Shown one piece after another: positions 118 to 10,655 of a stretch of DNA of 10,674 bases (positions within the stretch are counted from its first letter, which is position 1; the number at the start of each line of letters is the position of its first letter). Origin of the DNA: Oligoflexales bacterium (GTDB taxonomy: Bacteria; Bdellovibrionota_B; Oligoflexia; Oligoflexales; CAIYRB01); the NCBI GenBank assembly GCA_041736175.1, contig JBGSUI010000045.1, positions 1 to 10,674 on the forward strand, in the 5' to 3' direction. A program made the position numbers and the translations under genes. A model generated the notes under the pieces. It saw nothing but the letters and a program-made list of their open reading frames with translations. It had not been told where the DNA came from and did no database searches.

Positions 118-660
118 TTAGGGGTGCTGGTAGTTCACCAGGACGGTTTTGATCTTAGGAGTTTCGATGGTTTGTTTGAGAAGGCGTGCTTCGTATTTGC
201 CATTCAGACGTCGGTGCAGCGCCCAAAAAATCCTTTTGAGATCATTATTGTTTAAAATGAAAGCCGCGTCTTCGATGGCCTCGAGCCCGCGCAAAAACTC
301 AGGCTTTTGCATTTCCTTGTTGGCCTGCTGAGGGTCATTGTCGCCAAAAAATCCAAATTGACTGAATTCTTCATTAAACCAATTAAAAGAAATGTCGGGC
401 CCCGTTTTTCTTCGGTCAGATTTGAAATAGACCGCGACTGATGCGTTGTCGTCTTTTAGATTAGAGAGATTTAGACCCCAAAAATTATCCGTGGAAAGAT
501 TCATCTCGACTTCAACGTCGCCAACCTTGGCTTTGACACTCTTACCTCTATTTTTTACAACCAGCTCGTTTATGGCTATCCAATACTCATCCATCGCAGG
601 ATTGTCTGTTGCAGCGACGACGCTGCCGTCCTGAAGGGAGCGCGGACGGACGCAGGACAT
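118..660 (-). CDS. Hypothetical protein of 180 aa with no recognised domain
   Basis: 180-codon ORF from an ATG at 660 on the minus strand. An AGGAA Shine-Dalgarno lies about 9 nt upstream. The ORF is followed by hairpin terminator structures. The protein shows no transmembrane segment and no motif I can assign. Confidence 0.6.
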   Translation of the reverse strand: MSCVRPRSLQDGSVVAATDNPAMDEYWIAINELVVKNRGKSVKAKVGDVEVEMNLSTDNFWGLNLSNLKDDNASVAVYFKSDRRKTGPDISFNWFNEEFSQFGFFGDNDPQQANKEMQKPEFLRGLEAIEDAAFILNNNDLKRIFWALHRRLNGKYEARLLKQTIETPKIKTVLVNYQHP

Positions 661-960
661 ATCGAAGGTTCCTGAAACGAGATCTTTGATCGGTTTTGTG
701 GGAGCTTAAAGCAGTTCATTTTGAGTCCTTCGGTTGCATGTATTTATTGTAGGAAGTAAATCCTTGAGAAACCACAGGGCATGCCGTGAGCAGAGGTTAT
801 GCAATAGACAGGCCAACCATGGCGAACAATCGATGCCAATGGTTGTTGCTTGGATTTTCTATATTGATTTATGCGAGTAAGCCCAAGGTCTGGCGGACGG
901 AATCTCCTCAAAAGTCCGATGGTCAAAGCGTTTGCGAGTGTACAATCAATGTACTAATGT

Positions 961-1012
961 GGCCATTGGCCTTGAGTCTGTGTTGAGACAAGGTTAAGAA
1001 CCAAAGAACCTA
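961..1012. repeat. 52-bp repeat, copy 1 (ggccattggccttgagtctgtgttgagacaaggttaaga[a/t]ccaaagaaccta)
   Basis: Matches 3800-3851 at 51 of 52 positions in direct orientation. It contains the GGCCATTGGCC dyad and an imperfect CCTTG...CAAGG inverted repeat. It lies about 280 bp upstream of the SPFH gene. Confidence 0.9.
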
Positions 1013-1045: not shown

Positions 1046-1112
1046 GTGGTCTCAAGGTCATCTGGAGTGTGGACAATCGATATTTAACCATCTCTTTGAT
1101 AAGTTTCCGAGG
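1046..1112. repeat. 67-bp repeat, copy 1 (gtggtc.caaggtc.tctggagtgtggacaatcgatatttaaccat.tctttgataagtttccg.gg)
   Basis: Matches 8308-8374 at 63 of 67 positions in direct orientation. It sits 33 bp downstream of 52-bp repeat copy 1. The hypothetical ORFs that cover the two copies are on different strands and frames, so conservation is at the nucleotide level and not protein-coding. Confidence 0.85.
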
Positions 1113-1280
1113 TGGGGAGCTTCGGCTATTGCCATCATAGCTCCTTAGGTTTACATGTAACAACCAATAATTGCTTTTTAATTTGCATCTCCTTGCTTTT
1201 GACGAGTCTTTTTCCTCAAAAGATGCTCTGTAAAACCCGACACCTTTATGTCTGCCAACCTTGGCAGAGCAGATTTCACC

Positions 1281-1286
1281 AGGAGG
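1281..1286 (+). promoter_or_regulatory. Shine-Dalgarno AGGAGG for the SPFH gene
   Basis: AGGAGG lies 7 nt upstream of the ATG at 1294. The TTG at 1261 used by the ORF track is probably not the real start. Confidence 0.6.
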
Positions 1287-1293
1287 ATTAAAA

Positions 1294-2343
1294 ATGTCTA
1301 TCGTTCAATCTCTAAAAAACCAACTCCGCTCCGTCATCGAGTGGGAGGGGTTTGACAGCAGCGCGGTACTTTGGCAATGGACCATCAACGGTGACGAAAT
1401 TAAAAACGCATCAAAACTTTTGGTAAAACCTGGTCAGGGCTGTTTTTTCCTCCACGAAGGAAAAGTTGAGGCTATCCTAACTGACTCTGGAACCTACACA
1501 CTTAAGACTGCAAATATTCCGTTTTGGACCACCGTATCAAAATTTATGCAGGCCTTTGAAAGCGAGCATAAGGTGGGAATCTACTTTTTTCGCAGCGGTC
1601 CCCTCGTCGATCAGAAATGGGGCACCACAAATCCCATCAAATACTTTGATGCCAAATACGAGCAATCTGTGATGCTTAAAGCCTTTGGAACCTATACCGT
1701 CCAAGTGTTGGAGCCAAAGTCTTTTTTAGAGTTTGTGGCGTCGGCACCGTCGTTTTCGGGGGAGCAGCTCAGGAGTGCTTTATTTTCGCGGCTGGAACAG
1801 TCTATCAAAGACAGCATTGCCGAGTGCCAGTTTGGCTTTGACGAGATTGATTCTAAACTTAACGAGATTAGCGCAAAAACCCGAGACCACCTAAATAACG
1901 ATGTGGCAAACTTAGGGTTTAAAATCACGGATTTCAGGATTAACGGTACGACCTTTGACGAACAGACCACAAAAAATATCCAAGAGATCTCTCGGGCCGC
2001 AGCCGAGGCCATGGCCGCCAAAAAACGAGGTCTCACCTACGCCCAGCAGGCACAGATCGATACGATGAAAATTGCGGCGGCAAACGAGGGGGGAGGGCTG
2101 GCCGCGACGGGAGCTCAGTTGGCTGCTGGTGTTGGGATGGGCCAAATGATGGCTGGAGCCATGGCTGCCAACCTGGCAGCATCCACACCACCCCAAGCGG
2201 TACAAACCCAGGTAAGCCAAAGTCCGCACGACGCAAACGAGCCGGTAAAGCGCCTTAAAAAACTCAAAGACTTGTTTGACGCCGGCTTGATCGATGCCCA
2301 GGAATTTGAGTCTAAGAAGAAGGAGATACTAGCAGATATTTAA
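1294..2343 (+). CDS. SPFH/Band-7 family protein (Band_7_1, YdjI-like) with a C-terminal SHOCT-type motif
   Basis: The N-terminus, MSIVQSLKNQLRSVIEWEGFDSSAVLWQWT, matches the characteristic start of YdjI/Band_7_1 SPFH proteins. A central coiled, Ala/Gly-rich linker follows. The C-terminal KRLKKLKDLFDAGLIDAQEFESKKKEILADI is a typical SHOCT bihelical motif. The start has a strong RBS. Confidence 0.85.
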   Translation: MSIVQSLKNQLRSVIEWEGFDSSAVLWQWTINGDEIKNASKLLVKPGQGCFFLHEGKVEAILTDSGTYTLKTANIPFWTTVSKFMQAFESEHKVGIYFFRSGPLVDQKWGTTNPIKYFDAKYEQSVMLKAFGTYTVQVLEPKSFLEFVASAPSFSGEQLRSALFSRLEQSIKDSIAECQFGFDEIDSKLNEISAKTRDHLNNDVANLGFKITDFRINGTTFDEQTTKNIQEISRAAAEAMAAKKRGLTYAQQAQIDTMKIAAANEGGGLAATGAQLAAGVGMGQMMAGAMAANLAASTPPQAVQTQVSQSPHDANEPVKRLKKLKDLFDAGLIDAQEFESKKKEILADI

Positions 2344-2382
2344 AGCGAGTTTACAATATGGTTCGGGTTTATAAAGGAAGGT

Positions 2383-3525
2383 ATGGCTATGGGTATGCGT
2401 GTAAAAAAACAACTAATCTATGAATTCTGGGACTGTCCCCAGTGCGGTGCTCAAGGCATCCTAGGGTCAGCAGAATCCTGTCCCCATTGCTCAAAGCCTC
2501 GAAACCAAAGCATCAAATTTTATCGGAAAAGCGACCAAGAGATCTTGGTCGAGCAAGAAAAGCTCAGCAGACACAGTGGAGGAGCTGACTGGATTTGTGA
2601 ATACTGTGATGGACTCAACGCCGCGATGTTGACCCACTGTGGTTCGTGTACCGCCGAAAAATCTGCAAATGCCAAGACCGTTGTTGACCCAGGGCCTAAA
2701 GACATTCCCCCTCCTAAAGTCGAAGCATTATCTAAAGGTCCGCCCACTAAAAGCCGACGGCGGTTGATTCTTGGTCTGGTGGTGGCATCAATCGCTGCTC
2801 TCTTATACTGGTCTATGGCTGCGGAAAAAAACACCTATAGGGTGGACCAAGTCTCCTGGAGTCGCAAAATAATCGTGGAGCGTTACGTGCGGGAGTTCCG
2901 AGAATCATGGGAAGATGAACAGACCGGTGACGACATATCGCTTCTCACCAAGAAATCTAAGGTCAGGTCCTACAAGGATGTTCTCGACCACTATAAGACC
3001 GAGACCTATTCCGAAGAGGAATCCTATCAGTCAGGTAGTCGCGAAAAATGCTCTACCGAGTATAAATCCACGGGCAATGGTGCTGCAGAAAAAATCACTG
3101 CTTGCCACGACGAGCCGGTTTATGCAACAAGGCAGATCACAAAAACCAGAGAGGTTCCCGTCTATAGAAAAGAGCCAGTTTATGCAAACTGGGTTCGGTA
3201 CCAATCAAGCTTTTATAAAGACCATCAGGTCTTTGAAAGCTCCGGGACAAACAATGCTCCCCAATGGCCTAAAACTAAATTAGGAACGGGGGTCTCGCAA
3301 AGACCCGACCGGGAAGGTGCGCGGGACGGTCTTTATCGAGTGACGTTAAGGAGAATGTCTCCCAGTAAAAAAGCGCCTCCTTCCGTCACGATCACGACGA
3401 TAGAAAAGCGATTTGTCGATCACTATGAGATCGGCAAAGAGATCGCTGTGGACTATCAAAATGTGGGCGGTCTGCAGTGGCCCGAGGGCGACAAGGAGGA
3501 ATCAAGCTCTACTGACAAACCTTGA
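2383..3525 (+). CDS. Double zinc-ribbon single-pass membrane protein (YdjG-like partner of SPFH/Psp modules)
   Basis: Two CxxC...CxxC zinc-ribbon units (CPQC..CPHC and CEYC..CGSC) lie at the N-terminus. One hydrophobic transmembrane helix follows (RRRLILGLVVASIAALLYWSMAA). The C-terminal domain of about 230 aa has repeated EPVY/VPVY motifs. The gene begins 40 bp after the SPFH gene with no terminator between them. The start could be the ATG at 2383, 2389 or 2395; the RBS AGGAAGG at 2373-2379 favours 2389 or 2395. Confidence 0.8.
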   Translation: MAMGMRVKKQLIYEFWDCPQCGAQGILGSAESCPHCSKPRNQSIKFYRKSDQEILVEQEKLSRHSGGADWICEYCDGLNAAMLTHCGSCTAEKSANAKTVVDPGPKDIPPPKVEALSKGPPTKSRRRLILGLVVASIAALLYWSMAAEKNTYRVDQVSWSRKIIVERYVREFRESWEDEQTGDDISLLTKKSKVRSYKDVLDHYKTETYSEEESYQSGSREKCSTEYKSTGNGAAEKITACHDEPVYATRQITKTREVPVYRKEPVYANWVRYQSSFYKDHQVFESSGTNNAPQWPKTKLGTGVSQRPDREGARDGLYRVTLRRMSPSKKAPPSVTITTIEKRFVDHYEIGKEIAVDYQNVGGLQWPEGDKEESSSTDKP

Positions 3526-3799
3526 GGTTGCTCTTGGATTTTTGAACGATCCAAAAGGGCTGTGAGTTCTGGAACCTCAGGTGGAAGAGCCGGAGTAAAA
3601 TCTTGGGCTTTGAGGGCGGTACCTGCCAAGATGATTCCTAGAAAAACAAAGGGATTTTAGAGTGACCAAGGTCCATTGAGAGTATCATCATGATAATAAA
3701 GATTAAAATCGAGTAAGTAGGGGTTTGGATAAATCCTCTATGTCGGCCTCTGGACGGGGCGGGGTCAAGACACTTTTAGCACGTCTTTGTATCCGGTGC

Positions 3800-3851
3800 G
3801 GCCATTGGCCTTGAGTCTGTGTTGAGACAAGGTTAAGATCCAAAGAACCTA
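3800..3851. repeat. 52-bp repeat, copy 2
   Basis: Matches 961-1012 at 51 of 52 positions. It lies about 70 bp upstream of the GTG start of the oppD-like gene. Confidence 0.9.
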
Positions 3852-3922: not shown

Positions 3923-4981
3923 GTGACTGACCCCCTGCTTAAAGTCGACCAATTGGTCACATCCTTTAAAGTCGAAGCCGGAGTGCTCCGGGCAGTCGAT
4001 AAAGTCAGCTTTAGTATCAACCGGGGTGAGACGGTCGGGCTTGTGGGCGAATCAGGCTGCGGTAAGAGTGTCACCTCCCTGTCTATTTTAAGACTGATCG
4101 CCTCACCTCCAGGACTGATTGAGTCGGGTAAGATCCTCTTTGATGGCCAGGATCTCGCCCAGCTCTCCGAAGAAGAGATGCGAAAGCTGCGGGGAAACCG
4201 CATCTCGATGATCTTTCAAGAGCCCATGACGAGTCTTAATCCGGTGTTTACCATCGGTGACCAGATCGGCGAGGTCTTTAGGATCCACCAAAAATCATCC
4301 CGCGCCGAGGCTCGTAAAAAAGCCATCGAGATGCTCCACTTGGTCAAAATCCCTGCTCCCGAGGCACGGGTTGATGAATACCCCCACCAACTCTCCGGCG
4401 GCATGAGGCAGCGGATTATGATCGCCATGGCTTTAGCCTGTCGCCCCCAGCTGTTGATTGCAGACGAGCCCACGACCGCCCTTGATGTGACGATCCAAGC
4501 ACAGATTCTCGACCTGATCGAAAGCCTGCAAAAAGAACTCAATATGGCGGTCCTCCTGATCACCCACGACCTGGGTGTGGTGGCTGAGGTTTGCGACAAG
4601 GTTGTGGTGATGTATGCAGGTAAGGTAGTCGAACAGGGGACGGTGCACCAACTCTTTACCAATCCCCAGCACCCCTACACCCAAGGGCTGCTTCGCTCTA
4701 TCCCTAAGCTCGGCCATAAGTCCGAGTATCTGCCGACGATCGAAGGAACAGTTCCCAGTTTAGGAAATCTACCTCAAGGCTGCCGCTTTCAAACCCGATG
4801 CTCCCAGGTTTTTGACCGGTGTCGGACCGTGGAGCCTCCTTTGGTCCCTGTCCCTACGGGGTCAGGACCAACCCGCGACCTCGATGATTTAGGTTTAGGC
4901 CATGCCAGTGCCTGTTACCTGGTCCAAGGCGCAAGTGGACCCCATATCGACGGGAGGCCTGGTCATGACTCCACTCCTTGA
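3923..4981 (+). CDS. oppD: Oligopeptide/dipeptide-type ABC transporter ATP-binding protein (OppD/DppD-like)
   Basis: Walker [12 protein letters not shown] signature LSGGMRQR and Walker [13 protein letters not shown] are present, as is the oligopeptide-ABC C-terminal region ([17 protein letters not shown]). The gene uses a GTG start with an AAAGG RBS. Its 3' end overlaps the next gene by 17 nt. Confidence 0.9.
4952..4957 (+). promoter_or_regulatory. Shine-Dalgarno GGGAGG for the oppF-like gene
   Basis: GGGAGG lies 7 nt upstream of the ATG at 4965. This supports the internal start over the ATG at 4902. Confidence 0.55.
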
Positions 4982-5951
4982 AGTCCGCAACCTCATAAAA
5001 TACTTTCCTATCAAAGGGGGAGTTTTTGGCAGAGTCGTTGCCAAAGTCCATGCGGTGGACGGTGTCAGTCTGTCTATGCTGCCAGGCCAAACCTTAGGTC
5101 TCGTGGGTGAGTCGGGCTGCGGCAAGTCCACCTTAGGCCGGGCGATCCTTCGGCTGCACGAACCCTCCTCTGGCCACATTCAATTTGATGGTTGCGATCT
5201 CCTTTCGCTGACGACCAGCGAACTCCGTGCAAAACGTCGGGATATGCAGATTATATTTCAAGACCCCTTTTCCTCCCTCAATCCGCGGATGACCGTGGGA
5301 TCTATCCTCGCGGAGCCCTTTTTGATCCATAGGCTATGTTCAAAAAAGGAAACCACCCAACGAGTTAAGGAGCTATTAGAGACAGTTGGACTGCCTCCCG
5401 AGGCGGATAGCCGCTATCCCCACGAGTTTTCCGGTGGCCAACGGCAGCGTATTGGGATCGCCCGGGCGATTGCCCTTAGACCTAAGCTGATCGTTGCGGA
5501 CGAACCCGTCAGTGCTCTCGATGTTTCGATCCAATCCCAGATCCTTAATCTGCTGGTAGATCTCCGTAAAAAACTCCAGCTCACCTATCTTTTTGTGGCC
5601 CATGATCTCGCGGTCATCGAACACATCAGCGATTTTGTCGCCGTGATGTATCTGGGAAAGATTGTCGAATACGCCTCAAGCGAACAGCTTTACTTGAAGC
5701 CTTCGCACCCCTATACCAGAGCCTTGATCAGTGCCATTCCCGTCCCTAAAGTCAGCCTTCCAGGGACTCCTAAAAGACAGCGGCAGATCCTGATCGGCGA
5801 TGTGCCTAGCCCAATTAATCCACCTTCGGGATGTTATTTTCATCCCCGGTGTCCCCTGGCGACCGACAAGTGTAAGCAAGAGGCTCCGGCCCAACGCAAT
5901 ATCAGCGGCGCGGGCAAACCGCCCCATTTGGTTGCTTGTCATTATGCATAA
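4965..5951 (+). CDS. oppF: Oligopeptide/dipeptide-type ABC transporter ATP-binding protein (OppF/DppF-like)
   Basis: The N-terminus [19 protein letters not shown] is typical of OppF/DppF. Walker [10 protein letters not shown], signature FSGGQRQR and Walker [13 protein letters not shown] are present, with a C-terminal [12 protein letters not shown] motif and a CxxxRC..C tail. It is translationally coupled to the neighbouring genes at both ends. Confidence 0.9.
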
Positions 5952-7035
5952 CGTCCACCCTAGGCCAGACAAAACCCTGATCTGTCTCACAGGAGGCGGC
6001 ACGGCGGGGCATGTCACGCCTCATTTTGCATGGACGCCTTTTTTTGACAAACAAGGCTGGGATTATATCTATATCGGATCTCAGGGTTTAGAAAAATCCC
6101 TTGTGGAAGCCCAAAAGATCCCTTTCTATACCATCGCTGCGGGTAAACTCCGCCGCTATGCCTCCTGGCAAAACTTTACGGATCTCTTTAAAGTGGTCGG
6201 GGGGTTTTTCCAGGCATTTCGAATTTTAGGCCAAACCCGACCCAGCCTTATCCTGAGCAAAGGGGGATTTGTGGCGGTGCCGGTTGCTGTGGCAGGCTGG
6301 TTGCGGAAGATCCCGGTGATCTCCCACGAATCAGATGTATCCCCAGGACTCGCCAATCGGATCATCGCCCGGTTTGCCCACAAGATCCTCTACGCTTTTC
6401 CCGAGACAGCCCAATATATCAGCGGCGATAAAGGGGTATATGTGGGCGCACCGGTACGGGCTGACCTGGCCCTTGGGGACAAAAACCGAGCTGTCGCCCT
6501 GTGTGGATTCCAAGATTTTGACCCTAGCCTGCCGACGCTTTTGGTGATGGGCGGAAGCCAAGGGGCCCAGCGTATCAACGATGCTCTTAAGATCATATTA
6601 CCAACTCTTACCCAGTCTATGCAGGTGATTCACCTGACGGGCAAAGGCAAGACGATAGGCTTTCAGCATCCTCGCTATAAAGCTTTTGAGTTTGTGTCCC
6701 AAGAGTTTAAAGACCTCCTCGCCCTGTCGACCCATGTGGTTAGCCGTGCGGGGTCTAACTCCATCTTCGAACTCTTAGAGCTCCATAAGCCGATGCTTTT
6801 GATCCCTCTTGAGCTTGGAAGCAGGGGCGACCAAATCCTCAACGCCAACTCCTTTGCCCGCCAAGGCTGGTGTTTGACCTTAAGGGACAAGGATCTATCG
6901 GAGACGTCGCTCCTCGCTGCTATTAAACAGCTGATCGACCAGGGTCCACAGCTGGTCCTCAAACACCAATCCCGGCCCACCAGTCATACCTGTGATAGGG
7001 TAGTGGACGAGATCAAATCCACTCTTAAGATCTAG
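5944..7035 (+). CDS. murG: MurG-type GT28 glycosyltransferase (UDP-GlcNAc:undecaprenyl-PP-MurNAc-pentapeptide GlcNAc transferase)
   Basis: The N-terminal G-loop [15 protein letters not shown], the HESD motif, GAPVR, GGSQGAQ and SRAGS all align with conserved MurG motifs (GGTGGHVFP, HEQN, GNPVR, GGSQGA, SRAGA). The start ATG at 5944 sits in the sequence ATGCATAA, which overlaps the oppF stop codon. The longer form starting at 5800 in the ORF track is an upstream extension. Confidence 0.8.
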
Positions 7036-7169: not shown

Positions 7170-8156
7170 ATGCTATCAGAACAATCAAAAAACCTAGATC
7201 GAATCCCAGATGTCATCGCCCTACTTGAAGAGATTGTAGATCCTACGAGCCGCGGCGATCCAGAATCTCCGCTTCGCTGGACTTGCAAGAGTGTCCGAAA
7301 TATAACGGAGTCTTTGAACATTAAAGGATATGCAATCAGCCGACAAACTGTAGCAAATATTCTCCATGAACTAGACTATAGTTTGCAAACAAACAGAAAA
7401 ACATCTGAAGGTAAGAAGGATCACCCAGATCGAGACCAGCAATTTCGTTTCATCATTAGTAAGGCAAAAGCCTTCCTAAATAAGTCTCTGACGGTTATTT
7501 CCGTTGACCCAAAGAAGAAGGAACTGATCGGCAAATATAAAAACGCGGGCCATGAATGGGAAAAAAAGGCATGTCAGTCAAAGTGCTAAGTCATGATTTT
7601 CCTGATCCTGATAAACCAAAAGCAGTTTCTTATGGCGTATATGACATTGGGGGAAATCTTGGGTGGGTCAAGATCGGCATCTCGGCGGACACTACTGAAT
7701 TCGCTGTTGAGAGTATCAAACAATGATGGAATTTAATGGGTAGAAAACGATACACGATGGCTCGAGAAATATATATTTGCGCGGACAGCGGAGGTAGCAA
7801 CGGCTACCGAATTCACCTTTGGAAATATGAACTACAAAAGTTTTGTGATACTCAAAATATTACCATCACCGTCTCATTATCTTCCGGGTACAAGTAAATG
7901 GAACAAGATAGAGCAACGTCTGTTTTCATATATCACCATGAATTGGTGTGGGCGGCCACTCACGGATTACAGAACTGTCGTTGATCTAATTGCAGCAACT
8001 ACCACTAAGATGGAGTTGATCGTCAAGGCACGTCTCGATAATAAAAAGTACAAAAGAGGCATTAAGGTTTCTGCCAGCGAAATGGCAAAATTAAATATCT
8101 TTCGCAGTACATTTCACGGTGAATGGAATTACACCATTTCACCTCGAAGTGTCTAA
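7170..8156 (+). pseudogene. Decayed ISAzo13-family (Rhodopirellula-type DDE) transposase relic, 5'-truncated and frameshifted
   Basis: Three successive reading frames carry family-typical segments. The first is ESPLRWTCKS..RQTVANILHELDYSLQTNRKT..HPDRDQQFRFI (7170-7589). The second is SYGVYDIGGNLGWVKIGISADTTEFAVESIKQ*W (7571 to about 7877), with a TGA at 7724-7726 where the family has a conserved Trp. The third is CADSGGSNGYRIHLWKYELQ.../HYLPGTSKWNKIEQRLFS...FHGEWNY (to 8156). This gives at least two frameshifts and one nonsense codon, and the N-terminal 70-100 aa of the family are absent. Confidence 0.7.
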
Positions 8157-8307
8157 GTTATTTCTTGAAAGGTCCTTAGCTTTTGCTGTACTCGCCTTGC
8201 CGGACACAATGGATTCCGTCAAGATCAAGCCAGCTTTTCTTTTTTTACCTTTCCTGGGGATATGGGTTTATGATCGGTGGGTTTGGAAACCTTGTCGGAC
8301 TTTTGGG

Positions 8308-8374
8308 GTGGTCGCAAGGTCTTCTGGAGTGTGGACAATCGATATTTAACCATGTCTTTGATAAGTTTCCGGGG
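8308..8374. repeat. 67-bp repeat, copy 2
   Basis: Matches 1046-1112 at 63 of 67 positions. It lies about 150 bp after the 3' end of the ISAzo13 relic. Confidence 0.85.
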
Positions 8375-8818
8375 GATAGGTTTGTTCAAGGGACACTGAA
8401 TTGACCCTTTGGCAAATTTGTATTCGCCCCTAGTCGGTCCCCGAGAGCCTCAATAACAGCAAGAGAGGGGTAAAAGCCCACGTGTTTGGAATAACCAGCC
8501 ATCATGATTTTTTGGTCTCGCTTCCCGCCATGGACTAGGGCAAAAGATGGAATCTTGTAATTCATTTAAAACTTTCTGATTGAAGTTGGGTAAGGAGTTT
8601 GGAATTGAAAATCCTGCTGTGGCCTGTGAAACGCAACTTGAGAAGGGTGATTGCTTGATTAGGTCTCTAAGAAAAGAGTTGGATGGTTGATGCCTTTTTC
8701 CATTGGCCTTCTTAGGGAGGTCCTTAGGTTGGAATCACGAGTCGATCCGGCTGCCCAGAAACTGACCATCATTTGTCCACGAAACATTTCGACTTGTTAT
8801 AACTTACCGTGACATAGG

Positions 8819-9290: not shown

Positions 9291-10655
9291 CTACGGAACT
9301 ACGCAGCGCACCACAGTGGCGCTCTCAGAGCCGCTGAAGCTAGCCCCGGTTCCCGCCCACATCCAGTAATGATTAGAATAGTAAGTGCTGGCCGAAGACG
9401 TTCTGGTATTACTCATGCCCACAGACGGTACACCAGTGGTCGAGGATGACCAGCTAGGCGAGGCTGGGTCCGCAGGTTTGTTATCCACTGGATCGTTGGC
9501 AGTCGTCTCGTATAGGAGCGGCAGCCGCATTCCCTTATTGGCACAGGTTTGGATATTACCTTCATACCACGATGCACTATAGCTGGCACCACCGGCGGTT
9601 GTGTTCCAGAACCCTAAACGGTAGGCTCCTGCTGTGGTCTGATTGGTGTTGCCGTCATGGGCGGTGGCATCCAGACGCTGGCTTGGGTTTCCTTGATCGT
9701 AATATACACAACGCCCGGTCGCTACTCTATTGCCGTCATCGACATACACGTTTACAGGACAGACGCGACCACCAAGATTGGCCACGGTCCTATCGAGATT
9801 TGTGGCGCTAAAAGAGCGACCATTGGCGTTAAGCTTCAAATGCCAATTATCGGAACCATTTACCCGCAGCACGTTATTGCCGTCGGCCTGTACCCATATC
9901 CCCGAGGTAAGGACAAGAAGCTTGCCGCTTCCTGTATATGCCATGCCCGAATTCAAGGCAGCACTGGTCTGGTAGCAATCCACGCCGCAAAGCTCTGGTT
10001 TATCCCGGCTAGTGGTCCCTATCAACGATGTCTGGTACCAGGCAATACCATTGGAGACTAGCTGGACCAGAGCATTGGTTTGCAGAGTTATGGGCGCCTG
10101 AACCCCATCGATCTGGTCCGTGCCAGAGGGGAGGACTGTTGCCCAGAGCCCTGCACCTTTTACTGTGAGTAGATATCCCGCACCGGCACTTGCTGCAGTA
10201 GGGAGGGTCAGGGTGGTCCGGTTCCCTGTCACGATAAAATATTTGCCGCTGTCTCCAGCTGTCAGAGTATAGTCAGAGCTTTTCGTAGAAACACCCACAC
10301 TACCTCCACTAGCAGCCCAAGATAAGGATCCCGATCCATCCGTCACTAGTGCCTGGCCACTTGTCCCATCTGCGGCAGGGAGGGTCCAGATTTTATTGGT
10401 GGTGACAGAAGCAGGAGCCTTAAAACCTACATAGTGGCTATCGTCGTTATCCCCAAATCTAAGATCCGTAGCAGCTGTACCAGTTCCTGCCACCCGGATA
10501 TTGCCAGTGCTTGAGAGCTGGCCAGATGTGGCCACCACAGTGGAGCCCCCGATGGTCCCCGAGGTGATGGCAGAGCCAGAGACTTTGCCCGCAGTGCTAA
10601 TGGTGTCCAGTTTAGTATCAGCGATGGCGGCTGAGGCGTTGATATCCGTGTCCAT
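9291..10655 (-). CDS. Fibre/adhesin-like protein: phage-tail-fibre-like Gly/Thr/Ser-rich N-terminal region plus a DUF1566/Lcl-like lectin-type C-terminal domain. The 5' end may lie beyond the window.
   Basis: 454-aa ORF. The N-terminus ADTKLDTISTAGKVSGSAITSGTIGGSTVVATSG...LRFGDNDDSHYVGFKAPASVTTNKIWTLPAADGTSGQALVTDGSGSLSWA is a motif seen in tail-fibre or Bdellovibrio-type surface fibre proteins. The C-terminus CANKGMRLP...SWSSSTTG...VVRCVVP fits the DUF1566 pattern (C..G.WRLP..EL, YWSST, vRCVR). The reading frame remains open upstream of the ATG at 10655 all the way to the window edge, so the true start may be further 5'. Confidence 0.8.
   Translation of the reverse strand: MDTDINASAAIADTKLDTISTAGKVSGSAITSGTIGGSTVVATSGQLSSTGNIRVAGTGTAATDLRFGDNDDSHYVGFKAPASVTTNKIWTLPAADGTSGQALVTDGSGSLSWAASGGSVGVSTKSSDYTLTAGDSGKYFIVTGNRTTLTLPTAASAGAGYLLTVKGAGLWATVLPSGTDQIDGVQAPITLQTNALVQLVSNGIAWYQTSLIGTTSRDKPELCGVDCYQTSAALNSGMAYTGSGKLLVLTSGIWVQADGNNVLRVNGSDNWHLKLNANGRSFSATNLDRTVANLGGRVCPVNVYVDDGNRVATGRCVYYDQGNPSQRLDATAHDGNTNQTTAGAYRLGFWNTTAGGASYSASWYEGNIQTCANKGMRLPLLYETTANDPVDNKPADPASPSWSSSTTGVPSVGMSNTRTSSASTYYSNHYWMWAGTGASFSGSESATVVRCVVP

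Follow-up and report, generated by a model that had tools for sequence, protein, structure and literature searches.

An SPFH-SHOCT protein encoded beside a zinc-ribbon membrane protein in an Oligoflexales bacterium: a rare variant of a common bacterial pairing

In Bacillus subtilis, the soluble SPFH (Band_7_1) protein YdjI, also named SamI, requires YdjG and YdjH for its localisation to the membrane (PMC8581546; bioRxiv 10.64898/2026.02.06.704340) and is itself required for the formation of PspA foci (PMC8581546); as reported in a 2026 preprint, the SamGHI set also acts without PspA (10.64898/2026.02.06.704340). In YdjI a low-complexity linker is followed by a C-terminal zinc finger (PMC11237479; bioRxiv 10.64898/2026.02.06.704340). 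YdjG, which works with the TPM protein YdjH, consists of two zinc ribbons, an NTF2-like/YpeB-like domain and then a transmembrane (TM) segment (PMC11237479), and the Pfam annotation of its ribbons is TF_Zn_Ribbon (PMC9239133). Bacterial Band_7_1 SPFH proteins have no membrane anchor, and YdjI/SamI is the only one for which the route to the membrane and the way in which it is organised are understood. Here we analyse two neighbouring open reading frames (ORFs), ORF A (1294-2343) and ORF B (2383/2389-3525), of an Oligoflexales bacterium (assembly GCA_041736175.1). They lie on contig JBGSUI010000045.1, an entire public contig of 10,674 nucleotides (nt) to which we refer as the window, and an earlier note on this DNA had read them as a pair resembling the Psp accessory proteins, without PspA. 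We conclude that the pair represents a rare form of a pairing, common in bacteria, between an SPFH protein and a zinc-ribbon protein, related in its logic to SamGHI and not a copy of the Bacillus YdjG/YdjI, and that the SPFH-SHOCT protein itself is ordinary.

Architecture of the SPFH protein and its zinc-ribbon neighbour

Both genes are on the + strand with an intergenic gap of 39-45 nt, and each is preceded by a ribosome-binding site of its own, AGGAGG for ORF A and GGAAGG for ORF B; the arrangement is therefore operon-like. Translated from the ATG at 1294, 8 nt downstream of AGGAGG, ORF A (1294..2343) yields a protein of 349 amino acids (aa), the same start and length being used in the public gene call P0006. 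Pfam matches, hydropathy and an AlphaFold2 (AF2) model characterise it as a soluble SPFH protein with a C-terminal SHOCT domain. The Band_7_1 match (PF13421; E-value 6.5e-38, 130.9 bits against a cut-off of 24) covers profile positions 2-207 of 211, with an envelope at residues 27-233 (1372..1992, +), and the SHOCT match (PF09851; E 7e-8, 32.4 bits against a cut-off of 27) covers residues 320-346. Both domains had been assigned in the earlier note, and both stand above the Pfam thresholds. No TM segment was detected by hydropathy: the highest Kyte-Doolittle mean over 19 residues is 1.14, and it falls in the conserved Gly/Ala/Met-rich stretch.

The AF2 model of ORF A, for which 31 homologs served as input, has a predicted local distance difference test (pLDDT) score of 75.9. 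It comprises an alpha/beta SPFH core up to approximately residue 221, helices at 223-266, a low-complexity linker at approximately 266-313 (2089..2232, +), first Gly/Ala/Met-rich and then Pro/Gln-rich and predicted to be disordered (pLDDT below 50), and a bi-helical SHOCT domain at 316-348 (2239..2337, +), the two helices of which (316-329 and 335-348) are modelled at a pLDDT of about 90. The SPFH alpha/beta fold is thus followed by helical (coiled-coil) segments, and the model matches prohibitin, HflK/C, stomatin, erlin, flotillin and QmcA with a Foldseek probability of 1.00 and E-values down to 1e-9. The family keeps a G-rich motif in the linker, with N264, G266, G267, G273, G279 and G283 invariant. 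ORF A contains no CxxC pair and matches none of the PADLOC defence models. It belongs to a very large family, with at least 2,150 matches at E < 1e-10, mostly Band_7_1 plus SHOCT proteins.

The reading frame, its start context, alignments and an AF2 model together predict that ORF B (2383..3525, +) encodes a bitopic membrane protein: two zinc ribbons in the cytoplasm precede a TM helix, after which come a beta-ribbon and a small barrel. The protein is 380 aa long if read from the ATG at 2383 and 378 aa long if read from the ATG at 2389 (public gene call P0001); the latter is more probably the start, since public gene calls adopt it and it has the better spacing relative to the ribosome-binding site GGAAGG. 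Zinc ribbon 1 (2428..2490, +; W16, C18-x2-C21 ... C33-x2-C36) and zinc ribbon 2 (2590..2649, +; W70-x-C72-x2-C75-x3-N79-x6-C86-x2-C89) are at least 90% conserved among 185 family members, in which the four CxxC pairs at residues 18/21, 33/36, 72/75 and 86/89 are invariant or nearly so, and the spacing of the second ribbon is of the RanBP2/NZF type. In the AF2 model of the monomer (31 sequences, mean pLDDT 87.8) the ribbons, at residues 6-100, are followed by a disordered Pro/Lys linker (103-122) and by a single TM helix at 123-145 (2749..2817, +), which coincides with a hydrophobic helix at approximately 123-146 with a Kyte-Doolittle 19-residue mean of 2.17. Beyond the helix the model has a three-stranded beta-ribbon with strands at 148-176, 185-229 and 234-288 (2824..3246, +; pLDDT mostly above 90) and then a small C-terminal beta-barrel at approximately 310-365 (3310..3477, +). 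The ectodomain, approximately 235 aa in length, carries three conserved P-V-Y motifs: EPVY, VPVY and EPVY. The architecture described in the earlier note, namely two ribbons, one TM helix and an unnamed ectodomain with EPVY/VPVY, is thereby confirmed by alignments, hydropathy and the model.

The N-terminus of ORF B is predicted to be cytoplasmic and its C-terminal domain to lie outside. This orientation is suggested by the position of the ribbons and of a basic stretch, KSRRR, ahead of the TM helix, by the mostly even number of ectodomain cysteines across the relatives (152 even versus 33 odd) and, in the window protein, by C223 and C241, which are symmetric about the G-N-G turn and hence opposite each other across the hairpin. 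At E-values up to 0.1 the sole Pfam match of ORF B is a sub-threshold one to Zn_ribbon_RanBP (E 0.045), the only PADLOC match is spurious (E 0.042), NCBIfam yielded none, and sequence and profile searches against the PDB gave matches confined to zinc-ribbon proteins, with none outside the ribbons. The ectodomain is without a match in Pfam, NCBIfam, PADLOC or the PDB.

Independent support for the predicted long hairpin comes from the covariation of its two arms, which are joined by the invariant G231-x-G233 turn. Across the 185 relatives the arm lengths correlate with a Pearson coefficient of 0.976 and a Spearman coefficient of 0.75, relatedness being uncontrolled and the Pearson value being inflated by a few truncated sequences; examples of arm-length pairs are 52/54, 56/56, 67/68 and 81/80 residues. 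The correlation of linker length with arm length is only 0.15-0.20. Furthermore, the relatives P0004 and P0005 have extra tandem short repeats (YQSGSR-E-TY, VPVYSTRQVSR-R-T) in both arms (alignment A1, columns 270-300 and 350-375), which suggests that the ribbon lengthens in matched steps.

The ribbon is composed of 35% charged, 34% polar (Ser/Thr/Gln/Asn/Tyr) and 16% aliphatic residues, and with 69% charged or polar residues no amphipathic alternation is evident; its composition suggests a single-layer sheet exposed to solvent, not a barrel in the membrane. This bears on the idea that ORF B is a pore-forming or defence effector whose hairpins would assemble into a barrel and whose activity ORF A would regulate. 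Among the Foldseek matches of ORF B the pore forms of lysenin, aerolysin and alpha-hemolysin do rank highest, and phmmer returns weak leukocidin matches (E 0.37), but the Foldseek matches are not significant (best E 3.8e-3, probability at most 0.35, template-modelling score approximately 0.1). The likeness to elongated single-layer beta-sheet proteins and to beta-pore toxin hairpins is one of structural analogy only, in long antiparallel strands rich in charged residues, Thr, Ser and Tyr; as compared to the toxins, ORF B has no significant match, is anchored by a helix and has a ribbon that is not amphipathic. PADLOC is blank, there are no defence genes nearby, and the gene is nearly absent from viral contigs. 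Together with the composition of the ribbon, this leaves a pore or an effector an extremely improbable reading, and a defence role for the pair was rejected on the PADLOC result and on a scan of 2.9 million viral contigs that gave one weak match to the ORF B family. The match in question (L142:5001-5765; 23% identity, E 2e-8) is close to one end of an IMG/VR contig of 43 kb and could be host DNA at the edge of a prophage.

Within the ORF B family the hairpin arms measure from approximately 50 to 95 residues and lengthen in step. A speculative reading, and one that we regard as unlikely, is that the family represents a new class of envelope-spanning 'ruler' proteins, in which a rigid single-layer beta-ribbon, its length tuned by lineage, would project a small terminal barrel across the wall or the periplasm and the tandem zinc ribbons in the cytoplasm would link envelope state to assemblies there, in this locus an SPFH cage. 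If true, it would amount to a PspA-independent route from the envelope to SPFH proteins, serving signalling or positioning. The elongated beta-ribbon ectodomain, unusual and confidently predicted, makes the family deserving of a formal definition and of a structure.

Zinc-ribbon partners of SPFH-SHOCT proteins and the recurrence of the pair

To place the pair among its relatives, we surveyed 80 metagenomic loci (L061-L140) with homologs that are 43-50% identical to ORF A. A zinc-ribbon protein is encoded adjacent to the Band_7_1-SHOCT gene in 62 of the 71 evaluable loci (87%); nine of the 80 have no such neighbour and a further nine are too short to judge. Band_7_1-SHOCT proteins are, by this survey, almost always encoded beside a zinc-ribbon protein (e.g. 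L098:6017-6679, L110:6017-7528 and L069:1723-2346). In half of the loci (40/80) the protein immediately downstream is approximately 220 aa long and has an N-terminal ribbon and two Zn_ribbon_TFIIB domains, and in 22 of 80 it is a two-TM protein of approximately 500 aa with Tim44-like domains and double zinc ribbons. A TPM-domain protein is also present in seven of the 80 loci, six times beside the Tim44-like partner and once beside the TFIIB-ribbon partner. The combination of Tim44-like and TPM proteins is a pattern that fits the published descriptions of YdjG and YdjH (PMC11237479). Most such modules do not include PspA.

A conserved amphipathic helix, DLLxSVSxLIYKLF, forms the C-terminus of the TFIIB-ribbon partners; its hydrophobic moment ranks, at the median, in the top 1.5% of windows, and it is possibly a membrane-targeting sequence. 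All three partner types thus have a candidate membrane-binding element, be it an amphipathic helix, two TM helices or, as in ORF B, one TM helix, and the identity of the partner has been swapped several times, the three kinds being a soluble protein that ends in an amphipathic tail, a Tim44-like protein with two TM helices and a protein with one TM helix and a large ectodomain. As a zinc-ribbon neighbour is present in 62 of 71 loci, ORF B fills the usual partner slot. Since it sits where another zinc-ribbon protein stands in most relatives of ORF A, we interpret ORF B as a non-homologous replacement within a conserved pairing of Band_7_1 protein and zinc-ribbon partner.

The pair itself recurs. 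A Band_7_1 gene lies directly upstream of ORF B in five loci, namely the window, L004, L145, L007 and L012, of which L012 comes from a scan of 51 genome loci and the others from contexts that were fetched individually. At L004 the ORF A and ORF B proteins are, respectively, 80% and 60% identical to those of the window; at L145, which is assigned to the clade of the window as is L004, ORF A is 70% identical and ORF B is cut off by the contig end. In a rough neighbour-joining tree the window and L004 form a clade of their own and L007 and L012 fall within a Chloroflexota clade, in which the sister ORF B genes have no SPFH neighbour; the SPFH protein of the Chloroflexota pair is only 27% identical to ORF A. 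With so distant an SPFH protein and SPFH-less sisters, the linkage must have arisen or been kept separately in two clades, the SPFH proteins of which belong to different subfamilies. The genomic context of the pair differs between the window, L004 and L007.

This recurrence supports the suggestion of the earlier note that the two genes form a unit. The same note had suggested, from the arrangement of the locus, that the unit is autonomous. No PspA-family protein was found among the larger ORFs of the window by Pfam search, and PspA, TPM and Tim44-like proteins are all absent from the window and from the pair loci L004 and L007, the homologous pairs with Pfam-annotated neighbours. The ORF B family as a whole is mostly unlinked to SPFH genes.

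A first word-index homology search had suggested a tiny ORF B family of 5 proteins, a picture that was overturned by exhaustive profile search: the family comprises 2,415 representatives (50%-identity clusters) at E-values up to 1e-3, and 422 at E-values up to 1e-30. The matches are full-length, and 157 of the 185 top members have exactly four CxxC pairs and one TM helix. The window protein shares the hallmarks of the family: four CxxC pairs, one TM helix, W159, W176, G231-x-G233 and the PVY motifs. The hosts include Chloroflexota, Lachnospiraceae and other Clostridia, Coriobacteriia, Longimicrobiaceae, Cyanobacteria, Riflebacteria and Methylomirabilis. Ten diverse relatives gave only sub-threshold zinc-ribbon matches in Pfam, with the ectodomain blank. 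The ORF B family is, in short, large, unnamed and uncharacterised, and is without a Pfam model. Its genes mostly stand alone or beside other genes, as in Cyanobacteria, Riflebacteria and other hosts.

We give an even chance to the reading that the two proteins make up a small module for organising the membrane, in which ORF B acts as the membrane partner of an SPFH assembly. By analogy with other SPFH proteins, ORF A, which has no anchor of its own, would probably assemble into a large ring or cage at the cytoplasmic membrane, on its inner side. The zinc ribbons of ORF B would bind ORF A, either directly or via its SHOCT tail, and so fix the assembly at the membrane. The outer part of ORF B, as modelled, would be a rigid beta-ribbon of approximately 15 nm, of a length that varies between lineages, ending in a small barrel; the ectodomain may reach into the envelope and thereby determine where the assembly sits or signal the condition of the envelope. 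The contact between zinc ribbon and SPFH protein is a concrete hypothesis, testable in many bacteria.

A number of observations weigh against such a module. There is no ORF B-family gene in any of the 80 ORF A-family loci, and some close homologs of ORF A are partnerless. The commonest partner, the TFIIB-ribbon protein, lacks a TM helix, and 'membrane anchor' may therefore not be the property that unites the zinc-ribbon partners. The ribbons of ORF B are not significantly homologous to the ribbons of the other partner types: the hhalign probability is 52% for the Tim44-like partners with their double zinc ribbons (DZR), over 26 ribbon columns, and 7% for the other type, and for the ectodomain against the Tim44-like/DZR partners it is 0.3%. 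In the other direction, a Band_7_1 gene is found within 6 kb in only one of the 51 ORF B genome loci (L012), suggesting that the core function of ORF B needs no neighbouring SPFH partner. At Riflebacteria-type loci (L005, L030, L035, L036, L038, L039, L041, L042 and L044, at about position 6000) ORF B has a different conserved context, with an NHL-repeat protein upstream and, downstream, a protein of approximately 180 aa with an N-terminal hydrophobic segment followed by a multi-TM protein of approximately 440 aa. Finally, a scan of the window locus for promoters and terminators gave signals at chance level.

The main rival explanation, which we consider fairly unlikely, draws on several of these points. 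It holds that the adjacency is incidental or only regulatory. ORF B would then act independently in the envelope, for instance as a sensor, as a signal transducer of the anti-sigma kind or as an anchor to the cell wall, and its ribbons would bind another cytoplasmic target; ORF A would work alone or with a partner encoded elsewhere. More than 90% of the sampled ORF B-family loci have no SPFH neighbour, which keeps this rival alive, and the NHL-repeat protein and the approximately 180-aa protein of Riflebacteria are conserved neighbours specific to another lineage. ORF A homologs can, furthermore, occur alone, and the layout of zinc-binding domain, TM helix and ectodomain is common among transmembrane signalling proteins. 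Independence is disfavoured by the conservation of the pair at 60-80% protein identity over three loci with differing flanking genes, by its recurrence in an unrelated clade with a distant SPFH subfamily, and by the position of ORF B exactly where 87% of the relatives of ORF A have a zinc-ribbon protein. Nor does a sigma factor or regulator gene adjoin the pair in the window, as judged by Pfam search.

Flanking repeats and surroundings of the pair

The earlier note had also pointed to near-identical repeats on either side of the pair and suggested a mobile module. The repeats are real: two direct copies of a 55-nt sequence, 96% identical, lie upstream (958..1012) and downstream (3797..3851) of the two genes. 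In our reading they do not belong to the functional module. Considered as a possible structured RNA or terminator, the 55-nt repeat folds weakly (z-scores of -0.2 to -1.2), and it has no Rfam match. A second repeat, of 67 nt and 94% identity, is present in the upstream spacer (1046-1112) and at 8308-8374; it resembles the 3' end of a DUF1801-like gene, with weak Pfam support (E 0.016), and a fuller, frameshifted DUF1801-like copy lies at 8225-8565 (-), the corresponding region upstream of ORF A being 1046-1163 (-). An ISAzo13-family transposase (DDE_Tnp_ISAZ013; 7170-8156, +) is split over the ORFs 7170-7589, 7556-7726, 7736-7897 and 7827-8156, and looks like a frameshifted, decayed insertion sequence.

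The direct repeats, the decayed transposase on the same contig and the differing genomic contexts of the pair in the window, L004 and L007 would all be in keeping with a mobile cassette bounded by the 55-nt repeats. Between the repeats, however, there are only ORF A and ORF B, with no recombinase, integrase or transposase, and comparable flanking repeats are absent around the L004 pair. The composition of the pair is not distinct from that of its flanks, and the second, unrelated repeat ties the upstream spacer to position 8308 by what is apparently a fragment of the DUF1801-like gene. Finally, an assembly from another sequencing run (L141) spans 1062-3838 of the window exactly, with 100% identity, and its ends fall within the two repeat families, at 3838 in the case of the downstream 55-nt copy; breaks at these points are typical of repeats that are multi-copy in the genome, as ordinary dispersed repeats are. 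The mobile cassette is thus very improbable. We regard the repeats as dispersed sequences of an ordinary kind, which do not speak for mobility and which perhaps mark a rearrangement in a contig with a decayed ISAzo13 transposase.

Downstream of the pair, at 3923-5951 (+), are two OppD/OppF-like ABC ATPase genes (ABC_tran plus oligo_HPY), followed by murG at approximately 5977-7035. The OppD/OppF-like genes have no permease or binding-protein genes upstream, the usual place of oppABC being occupied by ORF B and the repeat, which may reflect a local rearrangement. Divergent from the pair, a 180-aa ORF at 118-660 (-) has no Pfam, NCBIfam or PADLOC match. At the other end of the window, searches with a 454-aa ORF (9291-10655, -) gave nothing in Pfam or NCBIfam, nor any phage match by tblastn; its N-terminal part, rich in Gly, Ser and Thr (…ISTAGKVSGSAITSGTIGG…), may resemble fibre or adhesin proteins.

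Comparison with known SPFH systems

The closest described system is YdjGHI/SamGHI, in which, as here, the Band_7_1 SPFH protein is soluble, has a low-complexity linker as well as a small module at its C-terminus, and is encoded beside a membrane protein with two N-terminal zinc ribbons, and the logic, a membrane partner that localises the SPFH protein, is likely the same. These likenesses raise the question of whether the pair is the orthologous counterpart of YdjG/YdjI (SamG/SamI), that is, a Psp accessory that recruits a PspA encoded elsewhere. ORF A and YdjI share a Pfam family, a pair of N-terminal zinc ribbons is common to ORF B and YdjG (PMC11237479), and a contig of only 10.7 kb leaves room for a distant pspA.

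Several details differ. The earlier note had likened ORF A to YdjI; its tail is nevertheless a SHOCT domain where YdjI/SamI has a zinc finger, and the ribbon that YdjI bears on the SPFH protein itself resides, in the case of ORF A, on a separate neighbouring protein. ORF B, compared here through the published domain descriptions of YdjG and not by alignment, has a central TM helix and a beta-ribbon ectodomain in place of the NTF2-like domain and C-terminal TM segment of YdjG (PMC11237479), and it lacks the TF_Zn_Ribbon match reported for YdjG, its own Pfam match being the sub-threshold Zn_ribbon_RanBP. It is also dissimilar, beyond the 26 ribbon columns, to the Tim44-like/zinc-ribbon proteins, which are the apparent true analogues of YdjG. 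The window pair has neither a pspA nor a TPM (YdjH) gene, its gene order is reversed as compared to Bacillus, and no Pfam-annotated pair locus contains pspA. Orthology with YdjG/YdjI is, on this evidence, improbable, and ORF B, as far as its model and sequence can be set against a description, is not a counterpart of YdjG by descent. PspA-free YdjGHI-like sets, composed of Tim44-like NTF2-fold and TPM proteins, do exist, and the window locus is not one of them.

Among the SPFH cages of solved structure (HflK/C-FtsH, prohibitin, stomatin, flotillin and QmcA-YbbJ), the resemblance lies in the SPFH and helical regions, which the model of ORF A matches, and in gene organisation, since several of these proteins are likewise encoded with a dedicated membrane partner, e.g. 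NfeD/YbbJ. ORF B is unrelated to NfeD, and while the cage proteins are anchored by a TM helix or hairpin of their own, ORF A lacks such an anchor and has an N-terminal beta extension and the SHOCT tail. The nearest relatives in layout are the modules in which a Band_7_1-SHOCT protein is paired with a protein with two Zn_ribbon_TFIIB domains or with a Tim44-like/DZR protein, with or without TPM: they share with the window the SPFH subfamily (43-53% identity to ORF A), a downstream zinc-ribbon protein on the same strand and the absence of PspA, whereas the partner in the window is non-homologous to theirs and combines a TM helix with a large ectodomain.

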